From the sequence record MN176217: a stretch of 64,000 nt of DNA. One strand, written 5' to 3'. Position 1 is the first letter of the stretch; each line of letters begins with the position of its first letter. Both the position numbers and the translations under genes were made by a program. The notes below the pieces were generated by a model that was given only the letters and a program-made list of their open reading frames with translations, was not told the DNA's origin and did no database searches. Positions 1 to 60,083 of the stretch are shown here, one piece after another. Source of the stretch: Escherichia phage vB_Eco4M-7.

Positions 1-10
1 AGACTGCGAG

Positions 11-232
11 ATGATCGCCGCGATAGTAAGTCTTAACCATGACGGCTATGAAGGCCACTATGCGAGAGCAACCAACCTTCGGCTCAAGGTGCGCATCCAT
101 TTCAAGGTCGCAGGCGAGGACCGCACCGGACTCTCTAAGGAAGAGTTCAGCAGCATTGCCGAAGCAAAGGCATGGCTCAAGGCATTCTATAAGAACAACC
201 CTAAATTCTATCCAACTAAGGACGCATCATGA
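11..232 (+). CDS. hypothetical protein (may be 5'-truncated by window edge)
   Basis: ORF with protein-like composition; ATGA overlap with next ORF suggests translational coupling. Confidence 0.3.
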   Translation: MIAAIVSLNHDGYEGHYARATNLRLKVRIHFKVAGEDRTGLSKEEFSSIAEAKAWLKAFYKNNPKFYPTKDAS

Positions 233-417
233 CTAATAAAACACAGCTCATCAATTTTGAAGGCAAAGAATACGAAATAGACGCTCGTGCGCGATTCGTT
301 GCGCGCGATTCTAACGGAACCATCTGGGCGTATGAGGGTAAACCTGCATGGAACGATTGGCGCGGCCAGTGGGGGATATGCAATTGGCGATTCACTTTGG
401 TGCAAGCAAATTGGTGA
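229..417 (+). CDS. hypothetical small protein
   Basis: ORF 62 aa; start overlaps stop of upstream ORF. Confidence 0.3.
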   Translation: MTNKTQLINFEGKEYEIDARARFVARDSNGTIWAYEGKPAWNDWRGQWGICNWRFTLVQANW

Positions 418-424
418 TGGAAAG

Positions 425-721
425 ATGTTCGAAGAGAACAGACCAGCATCACGTGATTCATTAAAGGAAGTGGCAGAAATCAAAATCCAAGACCAAGCGC
501 CATCGACCGATAACCAATATGCAGTCGGGCAACGTGACATCGAGCAACTCGACGAGGGCGGCTATTATACGCGCCACATCTATGCCATGACGCATGAAGG
601 ACTTTACAGCAAGTCAGACATCGCCGCTGAACTGGCCCATCGTGACTTGCAAATTGACCTTCTCAAGATAGAAGTGCAAAACTTACGCAACACCCTTTTG
701 AATACTTGGAGCTTAAAATGA
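425..721 (+). CDS. hypothetical protein
   Basis: Internal ATG at 425 (MFEENRPAS...) of track ORF 287..721, just after stop of 229..417. Confidence 0.3.
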   Translation: MFEENRPASRDSLKEVAEIKIQDQAPSTDNQYAVGQRDIEQLDEGGYYTRHIYAMTHEGLYSKSDIAAELAHRDLQIDLLKIEVQNLRNTLLNTWSLK

Positions 722-1137
722 CGCAACGTTATGATGTTGATTATTGCACGCAGCACGCTTGCACCTGCGAAGTTGTAAAGGATGATGAAGGCGGCTACGT
801 TGAATATGAGGACTACGCCGCGCTGGAAGCGAAATACAGTGAAGCGCAACGCGAGTTGGTTGCATTACGCTCACAGGTCCGTGATGCGTCGGTGCTCGTT
901 AAGCAGTTGCATGACGTTGTTGCTACTATAGGCGTGGATGATGCGCCGAAGGAGGAAGCGTGGACCGTTTGGGAATCCAACGCAACCAATCCCGTCCCAG
1001 GACGTATGGTGATGTATATGTTGCGCGACGGCTATGAATCTAAATCACCTGTGCTTTCCGATGGGTTGCGTTGGGAGATGATGGGACTGCCACACGGAAC
1101 GGACATCGTCGCTTATCGGGTTGTTAAGGAGGGGTGA
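718..1137 (+). CDS. hypothetical protein
   Basis: ATG at 718 overlaps upstream stop (ATGA); ORF MTQRYDVDY... Confidence 0.4.
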   Translation: MTQRYDVDYCTQHACTCEVVKDDEGGYVEYEDYAALEAKYSEAQRELVALRSQVRDASVLVKQLHDVVATIGVDDAPKEEAWTVWESNATNPVPGRMVMYMLRDGYESKSPVLSDGLRWEMMGLPHGTDIVAYRVVKEG

Positions 1138-1670
1138 TGGGTAACGATGCAGGATGGGGCAAGCCGCGATACTCAAAACTTGCCCACTACTTTGACGACG
1201 GCGAGCAAATCAGCTTGTGCGGTAAATTCAGCAAAGGCAATACAGAGTTGACCGACGCTCAAGAAATGGAATCAAGTTTAACAATTGGTGATTGTTCTAA
1301 ATGTCGCAAGGCATTATATGAGTTATTAACTCTAAGGGGATTGGAAGCGGCAAAATCAAGGGATGAATGGGTCATTAACGTCTGTGAAGGGAATCCAGAA
1401 TTAATGGATGAATGGCTAAAGACGGATGCTGTTAATGCCATTTTCAAAAGGCATTATAAAACTTGTATGCGTTACAAGATGAATGATGATATTATTTTTA
1501 TGGTATTATCTTATTCAAGGAGCACAATGGACGTCAAAAAGCTTCGACAATATCGCCACAAGGTAATGTGTGAATTACGCCGTTTAGGAGTGATTGTGGA
1601 TAATAATGTTATTAAAACGGAGTTAAAGAAGCGTGATAAAAGGAATGGTGACTGGAAGGTCAGCGGATAA
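1137..1670 (+). CDS. hypothetical protein
   Basis: ATG 1137 preceded by AAGGAGG at 1126-1132; 177 aa. Confidence 0.4.
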   Translation: MGNDAGWGKPRYSKLAHYFDDGEQISLCGKFSKGNTELTDAQEMESSLTIGDCSKCRKALYELLTLRGLEAAKSRDEWVINVCEGNPELMDEWLKTDAVNAIFKRHYKTCMRYKMNDDIIFMVLSYSRSTMDVKKLRQYRHKVMCELRRLGVIVDNNVIKTELKKRDKRNGDWKVSG

Positions 1671-2023
1671 AGAACATTGATTCGTGTGTTTTGAAGAATG
1701 GAATGTGTACAATTGGTCGCTTTACGCGGCCTTTTTGTCGTTTGGGTCGTGTTTTGTGATAGAATAATTATGACGAGGTGTTTTATTTATTAATTGTGCG
1801 GAAATATTTAGAAATATATACAAACAGGATTGTTAATATTTTAATAGTGTATGGCTATTGGTCCGTGGTGTTTGTTAGATTCTATCTATGGATTGGATTT
1901 TCTTGGGTCGTGGAACGTGGTTTTGAACACATTTGATACGCCTAAAATACGGTTAAAAATTAAGCGTATCATGGCTGCAGGCCGCGCCGTTCCTGGATTC
2001 CTATTTTCAAAAGTGGTACACCC

Positions 2024-2294
2024 TTACGTCATGATACGTCATGGTTTTCTATCCGTAAGAGTGTACAGCCCTTGCCGCGCCTGGCTTGTACATTAATCTT
2101 ACGGATGATACGGATAAAACTGAGCATCGTTATATATAGAATTCGAAAAATTAATTAACTCCATTTTAAAAACATTTATATTAATTTTTTTCATATCCTC
2201 ATACTTATGTTAATTTATATATTTAACGTATCATCCGTAAGATATAAGTAAAAACAAAGACTTGCGGCAATACGGATGATACGTCATGATACGC
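2024..2294. repeat. Palindromic GGATGATACG repeat cassette, copy 1: inverted arms CTTACGGATGATACGG (2098-2113) and CGTATCATCCGTAAG (2227-2241) flank a 113-bp AT-rich core; extra half-sites at 2024-2044 and 2271-2294
   Basis: Read directly; same architecture and a conserved core (TATATAGAATTCGAAAAATTAATTA) recur at 18117-18396. Confidence 0.7.
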
Positions 2295-2458
2295 TTCAAC
2301 CAGCCAGCAGCGGCTAAGTCATTGATTTGCATAACAAGCGGCGAAAGGGATGGATTTCTTTTATACGTATCAAACAGTACACCACGCACCACGGTCCGCA
2401 ATCCTATTTGCACTATGATTTGTGTACGTTTATAGCCATAATGAACATCAATCTGCAC

Positions 2459-2488
2459 TTGAATATAATGTCCATCCATTGTATAATT
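2459..2488 (+). promoter_or_regulatory. sigma70-like promoter candidate (-35 TTGAAT, 18-bp spacer, -10 TATAAT)
   Basis: Hexamers read from sequence upstream of ORF 2508. Confidence 0.35.
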
Positions 2489-2507
2489 CACACTATTAAT
2501 TTGCACT

Positions 2508-2996
2508 ATGGGATTTTGCACTATGAGTCAAGATTATGTAGCGATGCCTGAAGACTTTGAAGACCCGCGATTCGCAGAGCACAATCAGGCTTTATTCGAT
2601 GAGTTCATTGACCTTGTTATTCAGGGCCATGACATGCGCGCAGCTTTTGCACTAGTATTTGGAATGGAAGTTGCAACGGATAACTACACTGGCCAGCGAA
2701 TCCTTTGCACGCAACGCAATCCATACTACAAGATGCGCTTCAAAAAGCGTATGGAAGAGATGCCACTCAAGGATTTGTGGAGCGTAAAAGGTGCAATTCA
2801 CAATTTGGTCAAGCTTGTGCGTGATCCAGAAGTCGCAGCGTCAGCCAAGCTTAATGCTATTCGTGAACTGAATATCATCTACGACATCACGATGATTGAT
2901 GAAAACGGCAACAGCAAGATGGGCCGTTCCATGGACGATTTCTACAAGGATTTTGGAGAGGCGGCCAAAGAAGGCGAGCAATTCTCCCGCCACTAG
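2508..2996 (+). CDS. hypothetical early protein
   Basis: ORF 162 aa with acidic N-terminus; alternative start at 2523. Confidence 0.45.
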   Translation: MGFCTMSQDYVAMPEDFEDPRFAEHNQALFDEFIDLVIQGHDMRAAFALVFGMEVATDNYTGQRILCTQRNPYYKMRFKKRMEEMPLKDLWSVKGAIHNLVKLVRDPEVAASAKLNAIRELNIIYDITMIDENGNSKMGRSMDDFYKDFGEAAKEGEQFSRH

Positions 2997-3395
2997 CCAA
3001 TTTGCACTATAAAACGGCCCTAGAACACATTGTCTCCAATTCTAGGGCCATCGGTAATACGACGGGGAAGGTTGCAACCGTAAACGCGTTAGAAAGTGTA
3101 TTATTATAAGTCATCTTTTAGTCACCTTACGTAACAATTTACGACCTTCAACCGTCCAATCGAACGACTCCACCAGCAGATTCGCACTATAACCTAAGAC
3201 CACTCGACCCTTCTCGTTATCGACCCGCCAGCAAGTCTCGAATAGCATTCGATTTGCACTATTAACTATTGCTGCGACTCGCGTAGGATAAGCGCAATTT
3301 GCACTATGGTCGTAAAGGGATAAGGTGCGACCACTTCCGATGGACAACGTAGCGATGAGAATGAGCGTATTCATAAGCCACCAATTTGCACTATG

Positions 3396-3419
3396 AAAAG
3401 CGACCCCGAAGGGCCGCCA
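3396..3419 (-). terminator. Rho-independent terminator candidate (7-bp stem, UUCG tetraloop, U tract) on minus strand
   Basis: Minus-strand RNA GCGGCCC-UUCG-GGGUCGC-UUUU immediately downstream of stop of 3425..4051. Confidence 0.45.
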
Positions 3420-3424
3420 TTCGA

Positions 3425-4051
3425 TTAGATAATCTGGAAGGTGTAGGACTTGTTGCCGAACTCGAAGTTCAAGCGTCCAGCTTCTTTAAGCTTCATGCGG
3501 AAGCGAATATGCTTGCTATCCGGCAAGCCCAGCGCGGCGAACGCTACGCGGACCGATTTGAACTCGCCTACACCCTCGACCATAACGCCGTTACGGGTGA
3601 GACGCTTTTGCGCCACTTCTTTATTATCCCAACTTTTTGCAATACCTTTGCTATTCGAACGGCGATGGGAAGGAATTGCAATTTTATTCGCTCCAACCGG
3701 AGCATCATTAAGGCCGCTTTTAACGAAGGCTTCATATTCTTCGTCGGTCATCGCGTCGAGTTCTTCCTGGGTCGGCTCGGCCTTTTTAACGACCGCGCGC
3801 GCCTTATGCGTTTTTACATCACTGGACACTTCCTCGCGAGACTTTGCGTCTGGGATGGGCGATTCGTTGGACGGATCATCGAGCGCGTTTAAGGATTCGA
3901 TTAACGCGATTACGCGAGTCTCAGCGGTGCGACGGTCCGCGAATTTTTTAATCGGCTTTGAGCCTGAATTTTCGTTATAGAATGCAACGAGGTCGGCGGT
4001 CTTGGTTGCGATTACGTCGCCGCTGGTGGAGAAACGATTCAAACTGGCCAT
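3425..4051 (-). CDS. hypothetical protein
   Basis: 208-aa minus-strand ORF with natural composition and a terminator after its stop; overlapping + strand ORFs are R/F-rich and look spurious. Confidence 0.4.
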   Translation of the reverse strand: MASLNRFSTSGDVIATKTADLVAFYNENSGSKPIKKFADRRTAETRVIALIESLNALDDPSNESPIPDAKSREEVSSDVKTHKARAVVKKAEPTQEELDAMTDEEYEAFVKSGLNDAPVGANKIAIPSHRRSNSKGIAKSWDNKEVAQKRLTRNGVMVEGVGEFKSVRVAFAALGLPDSKHIRFRMKLKEAGRLNFEFGNKSYTFQII

Positions 4052-4192
4052 AATAAACTCCTAGTTTGGGAGCGGTGTCAACGACCTATTCGTTAACTCA
4101 TCCGTCCCGATATGAGTACATTATAATATAGTGTAGAAAAAAAGTAAAGCACTTTTTCGATAAAAATGAGATAAATTATTTTATCTTTTTTC

Positions 4193-4220
4193 TTTACTTC
4201 TTCGTACACTCGCGTATACT
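4193..4220 (+). promoter_or_regulatory. Promoter-like element copy A (-35 TTTACT, 16-bp spacer, -10 TATACT) within conserved block CTTTACTTCTTCGTACACT
   Basis: Near-identical block repeated at 4589-4619. Confidence 0.4.
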
Positions 4221-4276
4221 TGTTTATATCGAGACGGGCGATGGCCCTTCCTTCTAATAGCATCGGGAGTTTTATT

Positions 4277-4579
4277 ATGACCACTTTAATCTCTTCTATC
4301 CTTACTTACGACGAAGACCGTTTAACCGTTCGCTCTCTTATCGCCGCCGTTAACGCGGAACTAGAATCCACCATTATTAAGGTCCGCGCGGTCGCTTTCG
4401 TCGGCCTTTCCTTCGACGATATTAAGTACGCCGAACGTAGCGTCATCCGCTTCGCGAAGACCGATGACGAAGCCGTTACCCTTATCGAGACGGTTACGCC
4501 GCGCGGCGAAGCGTTAATTATCGTCGAGTATATCGACGTAGAAGGCGATAAGGCTTATAAATATTTTATCGCAAAATAA
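4277..4579 (+). CDS. hypothetical small acidic protein
   Basis: ATG 4277 (MTTLISS...), 100 aa. Confidence 0.4.
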   Translation: MTTLISSILTYDEDRLTVRSLIAAVNAELESTIIKVRAVAFVGLSFDDIKYAERSVIRFAKTDDEAVTLIETVTPRGEALIIVEYIDVEGDKAYKYFIAK

Positions 4580-4590
4580 CGAAAAAGTGC

Positions 4591-4619
4591 TTTACTTCTT
4601 CGTACACTAAGACTATAAT
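4591..4619 (+). promoter_or_regulatory. Promoter-like element copy B (-35 TTTACT, 17-bp spacer, -10 TATAAT), followed by 8-bp stem hairpin GGTAGCGA-ATAGG-TCGCTACC in the leader (4641-4661)
   Basis: Read directly. Confidence 0.4.
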
Positions 4620-4686
4620 GTTTTATATCGAGAGGGGATGAGGTAGCGAATAGGTCGCTACCCTCCCGACTAACTAGGAGAATATT

Positions 4687-4977
4687 ATGATTACTTTAGC
4701 CGCTATCCGCGACGCTCGCGTCGAGACTTCCGAAAATTCCAACGTATTTGGCGAAAAGCTTAAAAACGTCTATCTTTTTAACGTAGACGCAACTATCGAG
4801 CCTATTTATGAGCCGATCAACTTCCTCGACCTTTACAAGTATCGCGACGAGGACATCGTATCATCCCGCGTAACGATCAACGGCTTCGTCTATACGATTA
4901 CCGAAATCGGCGGCGAATATCTCGCGGTCCCGCAACTCGGCGGCGAAGTAACTTTCTTTAAAATCGTAAGCCTGTAA
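4687..4977 (+). CDS. hypothetical small protein
   Basis: ORF 96 aa with AGGAG RBS at 4676-4680. Confidence 0.4.
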   Translation: MITLAAIRDARVETSENSNVFGEKLKNVYLFNVDATIEPIYEPINFLDLYKYRDEDIVSSRVTINGFVYTITEIGGEYLAVPQLGGEVTFFKIVSL

Positions 4978-4988
4978 GGAGAAGGAAG

Positions 4989-5198
4989 ATGACTAATATG
5001 AATAATTCTCTTAACGCGCGCGCCCATCGCACCGCCGTAATCGATATGTTCCGCGAGCTTAAGGAATTATGCGATAATATGAACGCGATGTTATCCATCG
5101 GCGGCTGGGGATACGAAGAAGAGGTTAAATACGCGGTTATGCGTCGCCGTCGCGATAACGTCCTTGGACAAATTAAACGCGCCGGATTATTCCTTTAA
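4989..5198 (+). CDS. hypothetical small protein
   Basis: ORF 69 aa; RBS GGAGAAGGAAG upstream. Confidence 0.4.
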   Translation: MTNMNNSLNARAHRTAVIDMFRELKELCDNMNAMLSIGGWGYEEEVKYAVMRRRRDNVLGQIKRAGLFL

Positions 5199-5224
5199 TT
5201 ATAATTACCCACCGTTACTAATAG

Positions 5225-5250
5225 GCCGCGCTTAGTCGCGGCTTTTCTTC
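5225..5250 (+). terminator. Rho-independent terminator (GCCGCG-CTTAGT-CGCGGC then TTTTCTTC)
   Basis: Perfect 6-bp GC stem plus T tract right after the + strand early gene block. Confidence 0.55.
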
Positions 5251-5370
5251 GTCCCTATCTCGATGCGCTTCTCCGCGAAAACTCCTTTATCCTTCCCTTC
5301 GTCGTCGCATAATCTTCGTCGAGATGCGCCTTAGTTCGCATAACAGGTATTACGTTAAATGGAGAACATC

Positions 5371-5442
5371 GCGTAAGTCGTTGTTTTATATAGACACATA
5401 TATCGGACCGTTAGGGCGGGTCGCGTAAGTCGTTGTTTTATA
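5371..5442. repeat. Direct repeat CGCGTAAGTCGTTGTTTTATA x2 (5371-5391 and 5422-5442)
   Basis: Read directly in 650-bp non-coding region. Confidence 0.6.
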
Positions 5443-5568
5443 AAGGCGCAAAACTTTCCCTTCGTTCCGAACTAAAACGAGAAATATGCCGACCCTTCGC
5501 CCGAAAATAGTACGCATGCGAAATTACATGCATCTCGAATAATCCCCACCGATACTATCCTACACGCA

Positions 5569-5622
5569 ATCATTCGCTTTCGAATCATTATGCTTCATAT
5601 TATCATGCGTCGAATCATTCGC
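5569..5622. repeat. Direct repeat AATCATTCGCTTTCGAAT x2 (5569-5586 and 5605-5622)
   Basis: Read directly. Confidence 0.6.
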
Positions 5623-5903
5623 TTTCGAATTGTAACGCTGGAAACTGTAACGGCGATTGATTATTGCGTTCGTGTGGTTTTTATGGCATGGGTCTTTTGG
5701 TGCGTTTTGCTACTTGATGGAATTTGCGGTACACTAATCAAAATACGACACATTTGGTCCACTAACTTTTCAAAGAAAAAGTCCTAGACAGTACCGTACT
5801 ATTTTGTACCCACAGGAAATTTGCAGTACACTCCTGCGCAGCAGGCAAAATAAAGGGCCGCACTAAGCGACCCACGATTCACGGTTAAAGCAACATCCAC
5901 CCA

Positions 5904-6368
5904 CTATTCAATCTTATGGGCATCACCAAAACCATCAGCAATCTGGCTGATCAACGACTCAATGGACACAGTTTTACCAATTGATCGAGCGGTAATAGCA
6001 AGCATATTATCAATCAAGCCACGATTGACTTCACATGTTCCAGGCTTTAACTCATCTTCAGAACAACCAAAAAGCTGGTCGCGCAGACTTTCAAGAGAAC
6101 GCTCAATATTTTCCAACTTCTCTTCTAAATCGGATTGGCGACGTAAAACCCATGTCAAGTCACGGTTGCCGACTTCCAATCCATCAGAATAGCAAGGTGG
6201 AGCGTCAATTTTGATGCTGGAACTAAAAGCAGTGCCGCTGCCTTTAGTATAAGTATGGCTCATAGAATCATTTTGGCTCATAGAATCATTTTTATTTGAC
6301 ATATCATTACCTTTAATATTTGGGTGATTAACAATAACTATAATAAAGCCGCATAGCGCGCCATTCAA
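5904..6368 (-). CDS. hypothetical protein with internal tandem 18-bp duplication
   Basis: ORF 154 aa; tandem GGCTCATAGAATCATTTT x2 at 6257-6292. Confidence 0.35.
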   Translation of the reverse strand: MNGALCGFIIVIVNHPNIKGNDMSNKNDSMSQNDSMSHTYTKGSGTAFSSSIKIDAPPCYSDGLEVGNRDLTWVLRRQSDLEEKLENIERSLESLRDQLFGCSEDELKPGTCEVNRGLIDNMLAITARSIGKTVSIESLISQIADGFGDAHKIE

Positions 6369-18088: not shown

Positions 18089-18116
18089 ATTCATCGGCAA
18101 AGGATTGCCGCGAGTT

Positions 18117-18396
18117 TTATACGTATAATGACGTATCATACGTATCAAGTAAGTTATTGTTTTCAAAAGAATCTTACGGATGATACGGATGATACGCATC
18201 GCCGCCGTACTATATAGGAATTCAAATAAATTAATTTAAAATTATATATCTAATTTAATTTTATTTTTTTATAAACTCTTATATATGAAAAGTATCCGTA
18301 TCATCCGTATCATCCGTAGCACACCAGTGATAGCGCGGCTTATACACCGATACGGATAAAAATACGCCTCATTTTATCCGTATCATCCGTATCACA
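18117..18396. repeat. Palindromic GGATGATACG repeat cassette, copy 2: CTTACGGATGATACGGATGATACG (18173-18196) and GTATCCGTATCATCCGTATCATCCGTAG (18292-18319) flank a 95-bp AT-rich core; more half-sites at 18347-18396
   Basis: Read directly; paralogous to cassette at 2024-2294. Confidence 0.7.
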
Positions 18397-18451
18397 CTAA
18401 TAAAGGCGCGGCTATATCGGTTGTTATACATATTCAAACCATAATTATTGT

Positions 18452-18480
18452 TTGCCTAAGTTTTTTTCATTAGATATAAT
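18452..18480 (+). promoter_or_regulatory. sigma70-like promoter (-35 TTGCCT, 17-bp spacer, -10 TATAAT) for capsid operon
   Basis: Hexamers read from sequence; GAGGG RBS and ATG follow. Confidence 0.5.
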
Positions 18481-18503: not shown

Positions 18504-19922
18504 ATGCGAATGCAAACGGCACGCGAAATTGACAAAAATGGATTCTTGACGATTATGGGTTGTCCAATTTCGTCATTTGGCATTTTTGATTATTCTGCTG
18601 GTCAAGTTGGTCTTGATGGTGATCCGAATCGCATCGTAAAAGTCTATCGCCCTGAGTCAGCGGTGAAAGACCCCGAAGCGATAGATTCATTCAAAAATAT
18701 CCCTTTCATCGACAATCACGAAATGCTTTCTGGATTTGAAGGTGATGAGGATAACACAGCACCCGAAGAGTATGGAGTTGATGGCGTTCTGACTGGCAAT
18801 GTTTATTATGACAAGCCATGGATGCGCGGCGACCTTAAAGTGTTTAGCCGTCGTCTGAAGAAGGCCATTGATTCTGGAAAGGTTGACTTGTCTTTGGGCT
18901 ATGACTGTGAATTCATCATACAGTCTGGAGAGTTTGACGGGCAGCCGTATGAAGTGGTGCAGACAACTCTTCGCGGCAACCACATTGCTCTCGTGGACGT
19001 TGGTCGAGTACCAGGTGCACGGGTGCTGGATGGTCGTTGCTTTGACCATCTTTGTTTGACGACTGTAACACCATCCAACGAGGATTTAGACATGCCAAAA
19101 CCGTTAAAAGGTAAAGCGCGTGATAATGCTGTTGAACAGCTGAAATCACTGATCCCTGCGCTCGAACAATTTCTGAATGAAGAGAGTACTGAAGCTGCTC
19201 ATCAGGACGAAGTTGAAGTGAAAGCAGAAGAGAAGGACTCAACCGAAAATCGTGAAGAAGTAATGGTTGATCCAGAAGTCAAGGCAGAAGCAGAAGAAAC
19301 CCCAGAAGGTGAAGAGAAGTTTGAAGTTGAAACTGAATCTAACGCTGGCGGCGAACTTCCGCAATTGATCAGCCAAATCGAAGCACTTATTGCAAAACTG
19401 AAAGGTGGCGCGGTAGGTGATGAAGAAGAAGTTGAAGCCGAAGTCAAAGACGAAGAAGTTGAAGTCAAGGCTGAAGATGTATCACCTTGCGACAAAGCTG
19501 AAGATGTGGTTAGCGGCCTGCAAAACAGCAACGTAAAGGGGGCTTCGGTCGAAAAAGATGACAAACCGACAAAAGCGGCGAAAGCGTCGCCAGGTCCAGC
19601 AAAAGGGGAACACTCAATGGCATCTGATTCAGCAGTTGCTGCTTTCTACGCTGATTCTGCTCGTAAGAATAGCCTCTACCAGCGCCTGTCTAAAGTTGTT
19701 GGTGCCTTTGATCATGCAACTATGGACTCCAAGTCCGTAGCGAAATATGGCGCTAAAAAGTTAGGCTTGAAGTGCGTTGATGGTGCTGAGTTTGACGTGG
19801 TGGATAATTATCTACGCGGCGTTGAGCACGGTCAAAAACAGCGTGTAGTCGCAAAACAAAAGGCCGCTGCGGATTCTGCAGCAACTGACGAAGCATTTGA
19901 AGCTTGGTTGAAAGGGGAATAA
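18504..19922 (+). CDS. Putative prohead protease / scaffolding fusion protein
   Basis: Globular N-terminal 190 aa then long E/K/A-rich acidic low-complexity region; sits between head morphogenesis and capsid genes. Confidence 0.45.
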   Translation: MRMQTAREIDKNGFLTIMGCPISSFGIFDYSAGQVGLDGDPNRIVKVYRPESAVKDPEAIDSFKNIPFIDNHEMLSGFEGDEDNTAPEEYGVDGVLTGNVYYDKPWMRGDLKVFSRRLKKAIDSGKVDLSLGYDCEFIIQSGEFDGQPYEVVQTTLRGNHIALVDVGRVPGARVLDGRCFDHLCLTTVTPSNEDLDMPKPLKGKARDNAVEQLKSLIPALEQFLNEESTEAAHQDEVEVKAEEKDSTENREEVMVDPEVKAEAEETPEGEEKFEVETESNAGGELPQLISQIEALIAKLKGGAVGDEEEVEAEVKDEEVEVKAEDVSPCDKAEDVVSGLQNSNVKGASVEKDDKPTKAAKASPGPAKGEHSMASDSAVAAFYADSARKNSLYQRLSKVVGAFDHATMDSKSVAKYGAKKLGLKCVDGAEFDVVDNYLRGVEHGQKQRVVAKQKAAADSAATDEAFEAWLKGE

Positions 19923-57676: not shown

Positions 57677-57770
57677 CCTTTGTTAGTGCGGAAATATTTT
57701 TTGATAGTATAATTGCAGATATAGTATAAAGCAAAGTAAATCGAAATTGTGAACTAAATGGTAAATATTG

Positions 57771-57798
57771 TTGACTTTGTATCACTCAATATTATACT
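57771..57798 (+). promoter_or_regulatory. sigma70-like promoter (-35 TTGACT, 16-bp spacer, -10 TATACT) in divergent intergenic region
   Basis: Hexamers read from sequence; AGGAAAG RBS and ATG 57828 follow. Confidence 0.45.
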
Positions 57799-57827
57799 GC
57801 AGGTATTGATCACCGAAGGAAAGAAAG

Positions 57828-58910
57828 ATGGCTAGTTTAAGAGAAGAAGCAAAAATAATTGAAGAGTTTTTAACAGAACTCCAAAGAGGCATTCCAGAAG
57901 ATGAGCGCGTCATGACGGTGTTTGCTCCTGAAGCAACGGTACAGACCGACGAGCGCGGCAAGAAGATTAACAGCAGCTTCTGGCCTAAGCCTTGGAAGTT
58001 GGGCAAGCCGCTCATGCAGCACCAAAACGGCTATGCTTGCATCAGTTCAATGCGTAAGTCTCCCAACCCAAAGACGGGTGAGATGCGATACTGGCGTACA
58101 GAGTCTGCCTTTGGTCACGGCATGGCGATGATGGTTGATGACATCGGTCACGGTAAAGGGTCCAAAGGCGATTTAGATTTGGAATTCTTTTTCGAGCGAC
58201 TGAAGCCGACTGTCATCGTCGAGACTTCACCGAACAACCACCAGCTTTGGTACTTCTTTAAAGAACCGATTGGCCATCTTATTCAGTTCAAAGCGTTCCT
58301 TGGGTCTTTCGTTAACATGGTACTCAAGAAGGGCGGCGACAACACGATTAAAGACGTAACGCGCGTGGGTCGTGTTCCTGGGTGCATCAATAACAAGCGT
58401 GTGACTCACGACGGCCCCTATAAATATGTCGATGAGAACGGCGACCCGTTCCGCTGCCGACTTGTCCATGCAGACTACTCCTTGCGCTACACCATCGAAG
58501 ACATTTGTCAGGCATTTGGCTTTCACGTCGTCATGCCGCAAAAGCGTGAGATTCAAATTGACGTCGATGAATACAAGTATGATGCTGTTTGGTATAAAAT
58601 AGCCCAGCAGATTCTAGCGCGCAACAAGATGGGTGAAGGGTCTGATGGCGACGTCATCGAGAATATGTCAGGCAAGTGTCGCATAATCTGTCCTTGGGGT
58701 GAAGAGCACACCAACGGCGACCCGTATGGCGCTTACTTTCGCGGCCCTATCCCTGGTGCAGAACATGAATTTGTGTTCGGTTGCGCCCACGACTGCCACC
58801 GGAAAGGGGAAGGCAAGAAAGGTTGGACTGCTTTTGTTGAAGCAATCGTCATGCCTTATATTGAGAATCAACTTGACATGATAAATCGTCGTGCAGGTGG
58901 CATAAAATAG
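57828..58910 (+). CDS. Putative DNA primase / primase-polymerase with C-terminal Cys/His zinc-binding cluster
   Basis: Acidic MMVDDIGHG motif; C-terminal CPWGEEH...CAHDCH cluster. Confidence 0.4.
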   Translation: MASLREEAKIIEEFLTELQRGIPEDERVMTVFAPEATVQTDERGKKINSSFWPKPWKLGKPLMQHQNGYACISSMRKSPNPKTGEMRYWRTESAFGHGMAMMVDDIGHGKGSKGDLDLEFFFERLKPTVIVETSPNNHQLWYFFKEPIGHLIQFKAFLGSFVNMVLKKGGDNTIKDVTRVGRVPGCINNKRVTHDGPYKYVDENGDPFRCRLVHADYSLRYTIEDICQAFGFHVVMPQKREIQIDVDEYKYDAVWYKIAQQILARNKMGEGSDGDVIENMSGKCRIICPWGEEHTNGDPYGAYFRGPIPGAEHEFVFGCAHDCHRKGEGKKGWTAFVEAIVMPYIENQLDMINRRAGGIK

Positions 58911-59117: not shown

Positions 59118-59408
59118 ATGAACGAACCAAAAATGATGACCGTTGAAGAAGCACAAAAGCTTCGTGTTGAAAACGAGCTTAAGCTTGTCAACCAGATTCT
59201 CCCCTTGTTTGCAGGCTACGCAGTGGAGGAAGTTGTTGGGGCAATCCTTAACGTATCCACGCATGTCGCTATGAATCTTCAGGCAGAGCGATTCAACACG
59301 CTGCTGACTATTAAAGACCTTACCGTCAGCGCAACGTTCACTGTTGAGCCAGTCAATTTTGACGAAGCTTCAGCCGCGATTCAACAACAAAGAGATCAAG
59401 AGGTGTAG
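59118..59408 (+). CDS. hypothetical protein
   Basis: ORF 96 aa. Confidence 0.35.
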   Translation: MNEPKMMTVEEAQKLRVENELKLVNQILPLFAGYAVEEVVGAILNVSTHVAMNLQAERFNTLLTIKDLTVSATFTVEPVNFDEASAAIQQQRDQEV

Positions 59409-59792: not shown

Positions 59793-60083
59793 ATGAATAT
59801 TGTAATTCTTTATGGTGAAAATATCAGCGATGACGACATCGAAGTTGCCGTTGATGTTTACGGTATCGATGAGGTGAAACGTGTTGAAGAAATTAGTGGC
59901 GCAAATCTCAATGAGATTGTCAAAGAGGCTGGCTGTCCTTCGGAAGAGATTCTGGTGGTTACTAACGATGACCTGTCTTCTATGGATCATTTGCGCCGCA
60001 TCTTCACCGATTGCCAATACCTTCATGCTGTTCAATCAGTAAACAAATTGAGAAAGGCATACGCCAACCAATTTCCTTGCTGA
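59793..60083 (+). CDS. hypothetical protein
   Basis: ORF 96 aa. Confidence 0.35.
   Translation: MNIVILYGENISDDDIEVAVDVYGIDEVKRVEEISGANLNEIVKEAGCPSEEILVVTNDDLSSMDHLRRIFTDCQYLHAVQSVNKLRKAYANQFPC

Follow-up and report, generated by a model that had tools for sequence, protein, structure and literature searches.

A 64,000-nt stretch of Escherichia phage vB_Eco4M-7 (record MN176217; hereafter the window, in whose coordinates all positions are given) contains two related cassettes in which short repeats (iterons) with the sequence TGATACG surround an AT-rich core. The phage is an E. coli O157 myophage of the genus Wifcevirus, which is distantly related to the Pseudomonas Pbunavirus (PB1-like) phages (PMC11990801). 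The first cassette, C1, spans approximately 1934-2372 and lies upstream of terS, the small terminase gene; the second, C2, spans approximately 18113-18417 and lies between the portal/MuF genes and the head-protease operon. They are the two largest non-coding regions, and both are 100% identical to the corresponding regions of vB_Eco4M-7n; positions 1500-4500 (3 kb) share ∼96% identity with vB_EcoM_WFC. The initial annotation had described inverted arms at 2098-2113 and 2227-2241 bracketing a 113-bp core, with further sites at 2024-2044 and 2271-2294, and these coordinates proved exact. The second copy that it reported 16 kb away was found at 18173-18321, where a 25-nt inverted repeat (96% complementary) flanks a core homologous to that of C1. 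The repeats are real, but the cassettes are larger than had been described, and the main identity of the first copy had been missed: its core holds the physical left end of the genome. Comparison with related phages assigns C1 as a packaging-initiation (pac-type) site that is, in Wifcevirus, also the left boundary of the direct terminal repeat (DTR). No known RNA families or tRNAs were found in the 64-kb window. C1 and its surroundings comprise the following features.

1715-1731, plus strand: terminator-like hairpin with T-run that closes the upstream early-gene block
1934-1971: outermost left iteron pair, TGATACG on the plus strand at 1934 and on the minus strand at 1965, forming a 12-nt inverted repeat with a 14-nt spacer
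1981-1985, minus strand: GCGGC box, left side
2024-2044, plus strand: left outer iterons, tandem 10-bp units TACGTCATGA x1.9 (a half-site of the initial annotation)
2074-2078, minus strand: GCGGC box, left side, in the context GCCGCGCCTGG
2098-2113, plus strand: left inner arm, CTTACGGATGATACGG
2114-2226: AT-rich core, 113 bp, 16.8% G+C
Between 2162 and 2163 (2153-2172), plus strand: genome terminus and packaging-initiation cut, with AATTAACTCC to its left and ATTTTAAAAA to its right
2163-5778, plus strand: DTR, 3.6 kb, with its left end fixed at 2163 and the same in all records
2227-2241, minus strand: right inner arm, CGTATCATCCGTAAG
2264, 2310, and 2338 (span 2264-2342), all plus strand: three GCGGC boxes, right side
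2271-2294, plus strand: right outer tandem iterons, TACGGATGA / TACGTCATGA / TACGC
2359-2374, minus strand: outermost right iteron, CGTATCA at 2366
2459-2487, plus strand: sigma-70-like promoter TTGAAT-17-TATAAT, upstream of terS and outside C1 (10/12 match)
2523-2996, plus strand: terS, the first gene to the right, starting 360 bp downstream of the cut

The hairpin at 1715-1731 insulates C1 from transcription. To the left of ∼2096, the flank has been swapped in some Wifcevirus subgroups for unrelated sequence that bears the same iterons, and the GCGGC box at 2074-2078 is retained where the sequence around it has been replaced. Among the GCGGC boxes on the right side lies an IHF-consensus match (2315-2327), which is weak evidence because six such matches occur in the window versus 4.1 expected. 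A 31-aa open reading frame (2099-2194, minus strand) that runs over an arm of C1 was rejected, having no equivalent in C2.

Window position 2163 is the homologue of base 1 in five end-resolved Wifcevirus records, namely WFC, WFH, Mansfield (determined by PhageTerm), SP13, and Ro157lw; the genome ends used here are those of public records and published papers. By record date and stated method, at least the assignments for Ro157lw, WFC/WFH, and Mansfield appear to be independent. The base lies mid-core, with the left arm ∼50 bp and the right arm 64 bp away, and the ten bases left of the cut (AATTAACTCC) and the five to its right (ATTTT) were invariant in 7 Wifcevirus genomes. The last bases of the Mansfield record read CAATTAACTCC. 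Base 1 of WFC corresponds to its base 68689, so that the record carries a terminal repeat of 3784 bp; the PhageTerm call for Mansfield places the DTR at 1-3673, and a repeat of ∼3.7 kb was given in the paper describing WFC and WFH (Korf 2019, PMC6563267). In the window, the right boundary of the DTR falls at 5778 when the WFC record end is projected onto it by homology, or at ∼5697 when the Mansfield PhageTerm boundary is used. These positions are 81 bp apart; this right end may be imprecise, or the records may differ in how it was mapped.

Equivalent cassettes in other genera also contain genome ends or packaging cuts. The record of Pantoea phage Kyle, which includes the DTR and encodes a TerS that is 42% identical, begins within the core of the Kyle cassette, and terS follows ∼357 bp downstream. 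Packaging in Pbunavirus is headful, and reads of Ab27-29 displayed a single fixed end and no DTR (Essoh et al., PMC4482731). For JG024, 36 of 161 long reads begin at 59,376 ± 5, in agreement with a pac restriction fragment (Ipoutcha et al., PMC10913387). Position 59,376 of JG024 and nt 1 of Ab27 are the same base, with GCGAAAAT on its left and CGATTGCC on its right, located between inverted iteron arms upstream of terS. The PhageTerm boundary of MyoSmar is at the cassette edge rather than its center and the iterons there are weak, so that this phage supports the general picture loosely. C1 itself contains a terminase-cut end, adjoins terS, and carries repeats by the cut (8 TGATACG and 5 GCGGC). 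It is because homologous cassettes hold the DTR end of Kyle and the experimentally mapped pac cut of JG024/Ab27 that we assign C1 to packaging initiation. The adjoining gene at 2523-2996 is annotated as small terminase in Mansfield, and its product matches the decameric TerS of E217 (PDB 7UXE) with E=2e-34; in E217, terS and terL are ∼58 kb apart. TerS identity between lineages is 31-42%, and the helix-turn-helix region is the part that varies between genera.

The second cassette lies among the head genes and has the following parts.

18095-18110, plus strand: terminator-like hairpin upstream of C2
18107 and 18201, minus strand: left GCGGC boxes
18113-18147, minus strand: left outer iterons, 9-bp array ATACGTATC x3.1
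18173-18199, plus strand: left inner arm, CT followed by TACGGATGA x2.4 in 9-bp tandem
18200-18293: AT-rich core, 94 bp, 18.1% G+C (8.7% in the inner 80 bp), homologous to the C1 core
18294-18321, minus strand: right inner arm, ATCCGTATC x2.8 in 9-bp tandem
18335-18412, plus strand: right flank, with GCGGC boxes at 18335 and 18408, both on the plus strand
18349-18384: perfect 13-nt inverted repeat in the right flank
18376-18394: right outer iterons, ATCCGTATC x2.1
18452-18480, plus strand: sigma-70-like promoter TTGCCT-17-TATAAT, upstream of the head-protease operon and outside C2 (10/12 match)
18504-19922, plus strand: head maturation protease gene, the first gene downstream of C2

C1 and C2 are full-length paralogues whose arms and cores can be aligned in Wifcevirus, Kyle, and Pbunavirus. 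In their shared layout, a terminator-like hairpin precedes the cassette, and a near-consensus sigma-70 promoter and then a morphogenesis gene come after it. The eight TGATACG sites of each cassette are mirror-oriented around the core, some of them in tandem arrays with a period of 9 or 10 bp, and the G+C content of both cores is ∼17 to 18%, compared with 46.1% for the whole window. The initial annotation had proposed a genome-wide count of its motif as a check, and in that count the clustering stood. The sequence GGATGATACG (at most one mismatch) had 14 matches versus 2.8 expected, a number reached in 0 of 100 shuffles, and TGATACG occurred 24 times in the window versus 7.05 times expected from shuffles. 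Sixteen of these 24 occurrences lie within the 744 bp of the two cassettes (binomial probability 7e-26), and the remaining 8 correspond to the chance rate. In the complete Mansfield genome the same two clusters were present, with no third cluster of TGATACG.

C2 is conserved as well as the rest of the genome or better. Across 6 aligned Wifcevirus genomes, its inner AT-rich core and right arm were without differences, and the core varied at its left edge only. Members of the ECML-117/WFH subgroup have a C1 left arm (ATCTTACGGATGATACGGATGATACGCGTCGCCGC) that almost matches the C2 left arm (window 18165-18210), and the rest of their left flank is unrelated to the window; this likeness suggests recombination or gene conversion between the cassettes. 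None of the records or published read analyses consulted places a genome end in C2. A metagenomic Wifcevirus contig of 68.5 kb (IMGVR_UViG_3300045988_152943) stops precisely where the left arm of C2 lies, 334 bp ahead of the protease gene; such an end is probably an assembly break arising from the sequence shared by C1 and C2, not a physical end. A 24-aa open reading frame in C2, beginning MKSIRIIRIIR, was rejected for want of a ribosome-binding site.

The iteron differs among at least seven lineages, and within each genome the same iteron is present at both sites. The iterons of the named lineages are listed below.

Wifcevirus: TGATACG / ATCCGTA
Kyle: GGTTATT (GGAATAACC tandems)
Pbunavirus: GGTAATT(T)
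Uncultured lineage 1: TATCCGAT
Uncultured lineage 2: CCGCAAC
MyoSmar: ACGAAAAG (weaker)

When repeated 7-mers shared by the stretches that precede terS and the protease gene were compared over 6 lineages, the matrix was strongly diagonal, and all 10 copies of GGTTATT in 24 kb of Kyle sequence lie inside its two cassettes. Ahead of protease genes sharing ∼43% identity or more, C2-like cassettes of at least nine specificities are found, and none was found ahead of the protease genes of more distant relatives. In a blind test, the C2 iteron of an unrelated 69.8-kb contig (GGAAAGTAGGAAAGTA) was searched against the whole viral collection and identified exactly one further locus in that contig, which had the C1 architecture: 12 iterons, mirrored GCGGC boxes, an AT-rich core, and the start of an open reading frame downstream. 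Since the iterons co-vary, the cassettes align, and the blind search returned a C1-type locus, one DNA-binding protein probably reads both sites. The proposal of the initial annotation that a single protein serves the two loci is thereby well supported.

The GCGGC boxes behave differently from the iterons. In both cassettes they are on the minus strand to the left of the core and on the plus strand to the right of it, with five in C1 and four in C2, in contexts that include TTGCGGCAA, CAGCGGCTAA, and GGCGCGGC. They are kept in Kyle, Pbunavirus, MyoSmar, and one uncultured lineage, though the iterons of these phages differ. A second and more conserved factor may recognize them.

Taken together, we consider it moderately probable that C1 is a pac site with TerS as its putative reader and that C2, its paralogue, is under the same reader. 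In the proposed series of steps, a lineage-specific reader would bind the TGATACG iterons, phased at 9-10 bp and mirrored around the 113-bp core. The iteron-bound assembly would offer the core to the large terminase for cutting at AACTCC^ATTTT (2162/2163), and packaging would then run rightward through terS and end after the second copy of the repeat (right boundary ∼5697-5778). We infer the rightward direction in Wifcevirus from the read starts and coverage of JG024. The reader would most likely be the decameric TerS encoded 360 bp downstream, because TerS is the recognition subunit of such machines, is encoded next to the site, has a variable helix-turn-helix, and forms a decamer that would fit the 9-bp step. 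Neighboring helix-turn-helix domains on a TerS ring of 9 or 10 subunits would be expected to lie about one such step apart. C2 would be a second loading platform that either pairs with the pac site for synapsis or sensing, as proposed for T4, or links packaging to the head operon. Both the geometry of DNA wrapping and any role of C2 are what we infer from this arrangement.

Several points weigh against this interpretation. E217 TerS reportedly lacked appreciable DNA binding in vitro (PMC9611059). Perfect iterons are more numerous in C2 than in C1, contrary to expectation if TerS mainly targets C1. Because the GCGGC boxes are conserved across genera and the iterons are not, two proteins may act, and which set belongs to TerS is ambiguous. 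The sequence at the cut site is alike between C1 and C2 in Kyle only, so cleavage at C2 is possible in that phage. Some submitters of Wifcevirus records may also have oriented their sequences on an earlier record.

The right end of the DTR is accompanied by repeats of its own. An AATCATT-type array (window 5568-5640, period ∼15, 4.2 copies) lies 60-200 bp inside the right boundary and is followed by a (T/C)TTGC(G/A)GTACACTAATCA box, and both are kept in Pantoea phage Kyle (3440-3600); this array and box suggest that a distinct signal directs the right-end (termination) cut. A third repeat class, ATTTGCACTAT(G), is present just right of the terminus as six exact copies, with near-copies at 2514 and 3180. 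All are on the plus strand within 2406-3395, where they span terS and the minus-strand genes beyond it, and there are none near C2. Related copies, ATTTGCGGTAC and ATTTGCAGTAC, at 5722-5732 and 5819-5829 bracket the right DTR boundary or lie just beyond it, depending on the boundary call. A degenerate pattern of the ATTTGCACTAT-type repeats had 8 matches versus 0.39 expected, and these repeats may be oriented terminase or termination signals of the DTR. A perfect 18-bp tandem, TGGCTCATAGAATCATTT x2.1, is located just outside the terminal repeat at 6256-6292, in a block of small minus-strand genes according to the Mansfield map.

The initial annotation had read the cassettes as either an initiator-bound replication origin or a regulator-controlled promoter pair. 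The second of these is not supported, as promoter matches in the core reach 9/12 only and occur at the shuffle frequency. The first found no positive evidence here, DnaA boxes (TTATNCACA, at most one mismatch) being unenriched at 55 versus 64 expected in the window, with a perfect box in neither cassette; it nevertheless has a developed form that we judge unlikely but that merits a full account. The cassettes would be replication origins, or an origin plus a cis enhancer like that of P4 ori/crr, read by a VapE/D5-type SF3 helicase with a RepB'-type primase. Mirrored iterons would load a pair of helicases on the core, and the terminase cut in C1 would be coincidental or linked to the replisome through duplication of the terminal repeat. 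The architecture is a classic one, with iterons in both orientations beside and around an AT-rich core of ∼17 to 18% G+C, and the sites are the largest non-coding regions, the divergent early-promoter region (57680-57828) being without iterons. The phage encodes both a RepB_primase (PF16793, 57828-58907) and a VapE-like helicase (PF05272, 60220-61890) whose C-terminal 130 residues are winged-helix-like and are its most variable part between genera. The helicase gene lies directly upstream of C1 in PB1, JG024, and MyoSmar, whereas in Wifcevirus it is ∼8 kb away. Precedents exist in P4 ori/crr, with two distant iteron clusters under one primase-helicase, and in T7, with origin-like elements near the ends and internally. 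Yet the only feature mapped to C1, in three genera, is an end produced by packaging rather than a start of replication; C2 is inside the head-gene module, distant from the replication genes; and the C2 core is near-invariant in 6 genomes, a stronger constraint than a mere unwinding element needs.

Other guides to an origin were tried and set aside. The region at 57680-57828, considered as an alternative origin, has promoters only and no repeats, and GC skew merely tracks the direction of transcription and was uninformative. Co-variation of TerS versus helicase with the iterons did not serve as a discriminator, because both proteins carry a variable putative DNA-binding region. In the same part of the genome, a 96-aa protein (59793-60083) is related by HHpred to the RSF1010 plasmid primase RepB, according to the Mansfield annotation. 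Genes for a DnaE-type Pol III alpha subunit and an epsilon subunit are located elsewhere in the genome, and the priming system is plasmid-like, which is unusual for a lytic myophage.

The iterons could instead be operators of a phage transcription regulator that times the terS and head-protease operons, the terminus merely occupying the same intergenic region; we regard this as improbable. Both cassettes do stand between a terminator and a strong sigma-70-like promoter of a morphogenesis gene, as they also do in Kyle and PS44, and in the study by the JG024 authors a sigma-70 promoter was predicted within the C2-equivalent core (PMC3008698). The near-consensus promoters, however, are 60-250 bp downstream of the arrays without overlap, a promoter this close to the sigma-70 consensus requires no activator, and a packaging cut at the cassette center in three genera is left unexplained. 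A possible regulator is a 69-aa protein encoded in the terminal repeat (4989-5198, plus strand) that matches PHROG 10377, 'transcriptional regulator', with E=1.6e-37, a match that makes it another candidate for reading one of the repeat classes; the proteins encoded beside C1 in the terminal repeat had no match in Pfam, and this PHROG match was the single lead among them. That C2 is a functionless duplicate of the pac region, its likeness maintained by gene conversion and the co-variation reflecting homogenization, is very improbable: the whole-length alignment of C1 and C2 in each lineage and the nearly identical left arms of the ECML-117 subgroup, suggestive of conversion, would fit, but the position of C2 is kept where TerS identity is 31-42% and the iterons are wholly different, most of C2 is invariant in 6 Wifcevirus genomes, and a useless 300-bp repeat would be expected to decay or vanish from compact genomes whose coding density is 93%.

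The assignment of C1 as a pac site, with C2 as its paralogue, can be compared with known systems. The pac site of P1 has hexamer repeats, TGATCA/G, with 4 and 3 copies flanking a central cleavage region, and an IHF site, and it is bound by PacA. C1 resembles it in having repeats on both sides of the initiating cut, an adjoining small-subunit gene, and one IHF-consensus match in the flank. It differs in that its repeats are 9-10-bp tandems mirrored about a longer, very AT-rich core, and in that another complete copy is present 16 kb away; evidence of Dam control is lacking, and the Wifcevirus cut sets a fixed end of the DTR instead of opening a headful series. In P4, ori and crr contain type I iterons bound by the alpha primase-helicase, and the oriV of RSF1010 uses the RepB' primase. 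The present phage likewise has two distant clusters of one iteron and encodes an SF3-type helicase and a RepB'-type primase, but unlike in P4, one cluster holds the packaging cut and the other sits in the head genes. T7 has promoter and AT-rich modules near its ends (phiOL/phiOR) and internally at the primary origin, and they are needed for concatemer processing. Related AT-rich modules are similarly found here at the terminal-repeat boundary and internally, ∼15-25% into the genome; the T7 modules are phage RNA polymerase promoters, whereas those of vB_Eco4M-7 are iteron arrays in a phage without an RNA polymerase gene. As in SPP1 pac (pacL/pacC/pacR) and lambda cos (cosN/cosB), putative TerS elements flank or adjoin the cut near terS and packaging probably goes toward terS (PMC9611059). 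Those sites occur as one copy per genome, in contrast to the two copies found here, and terS is apart from terL in the present group. T4 possesses a pac site in gene 16 and a homologous sequence in gene 19, which a twin-ring synapsis model has joined by TerS rings (PMC10893049), and so shares with vB_Eco4M-7 the presence of two homologous pac-like sequences separated by kilobases. As an indirect hint in the same direction, E217 TerS is reported to form higher-order oligomers (PMC9611059). In T4 these sequences are short and GC-rich and lie within coding regions, and the ends are not sequence-specific; the cassettes described here are non-coding, 300-440 bp in length, evolve in concert, and yield one precise end.

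Repeat-flanked pac sites are already known; for the cassettes, their lineage-specific iterons, and the conserved uncut twin, we found no prior description. Earlier mentions were limited to AT-rich boxes and conserved intergenic motifs of unclear function (PMC3008698) and to a putative pac coordinate (PMC10913387). As a tentative and, on balance, doubtful generalization, the PB1-like supergroup (Pbunavirus, Wifcevirus, Kylevirus, Myosmarvirus, and uncultured relatives) might use obligatory two-site packaging in which the distant, uncut twin has to be occupied by the same lineage-specific reader. The twin may let the terminase check the continuity of the concatemer, following the T4 synapsis idea, or tie the start of packaging to head-gene expression; alternatively, it may be an origin, and its copy at the boundary of the repeat would then load the replisome by which the 3.6-kb terminal repeat is duplicated.

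Pbunaviruses are among the most-used Pseudomonas therapy phages, and the DNA signal at which packaging starts in this group had so far been undefined. The structure of E217 TerS is solved, and the cassettes provide an explicit candidate for its DNA target, with the cut placed to the base. Lineages that carry different iterons in the same architecture offer a ready system for specificity swaps. For engineering, vB_Eco4M-7 has already been rebuilt by in vitro synthesis (PMC11074155), and changes that insert or delete sequence close to C1 or C2, as well as rebooting designs in which the cassettes are split, may fail. A conserved uncut twin that co-evolves with the pac site is outside the predictions of the standard pac, cos, and DTR models, and it makes testable whether small terminases bridge two DNA sites.

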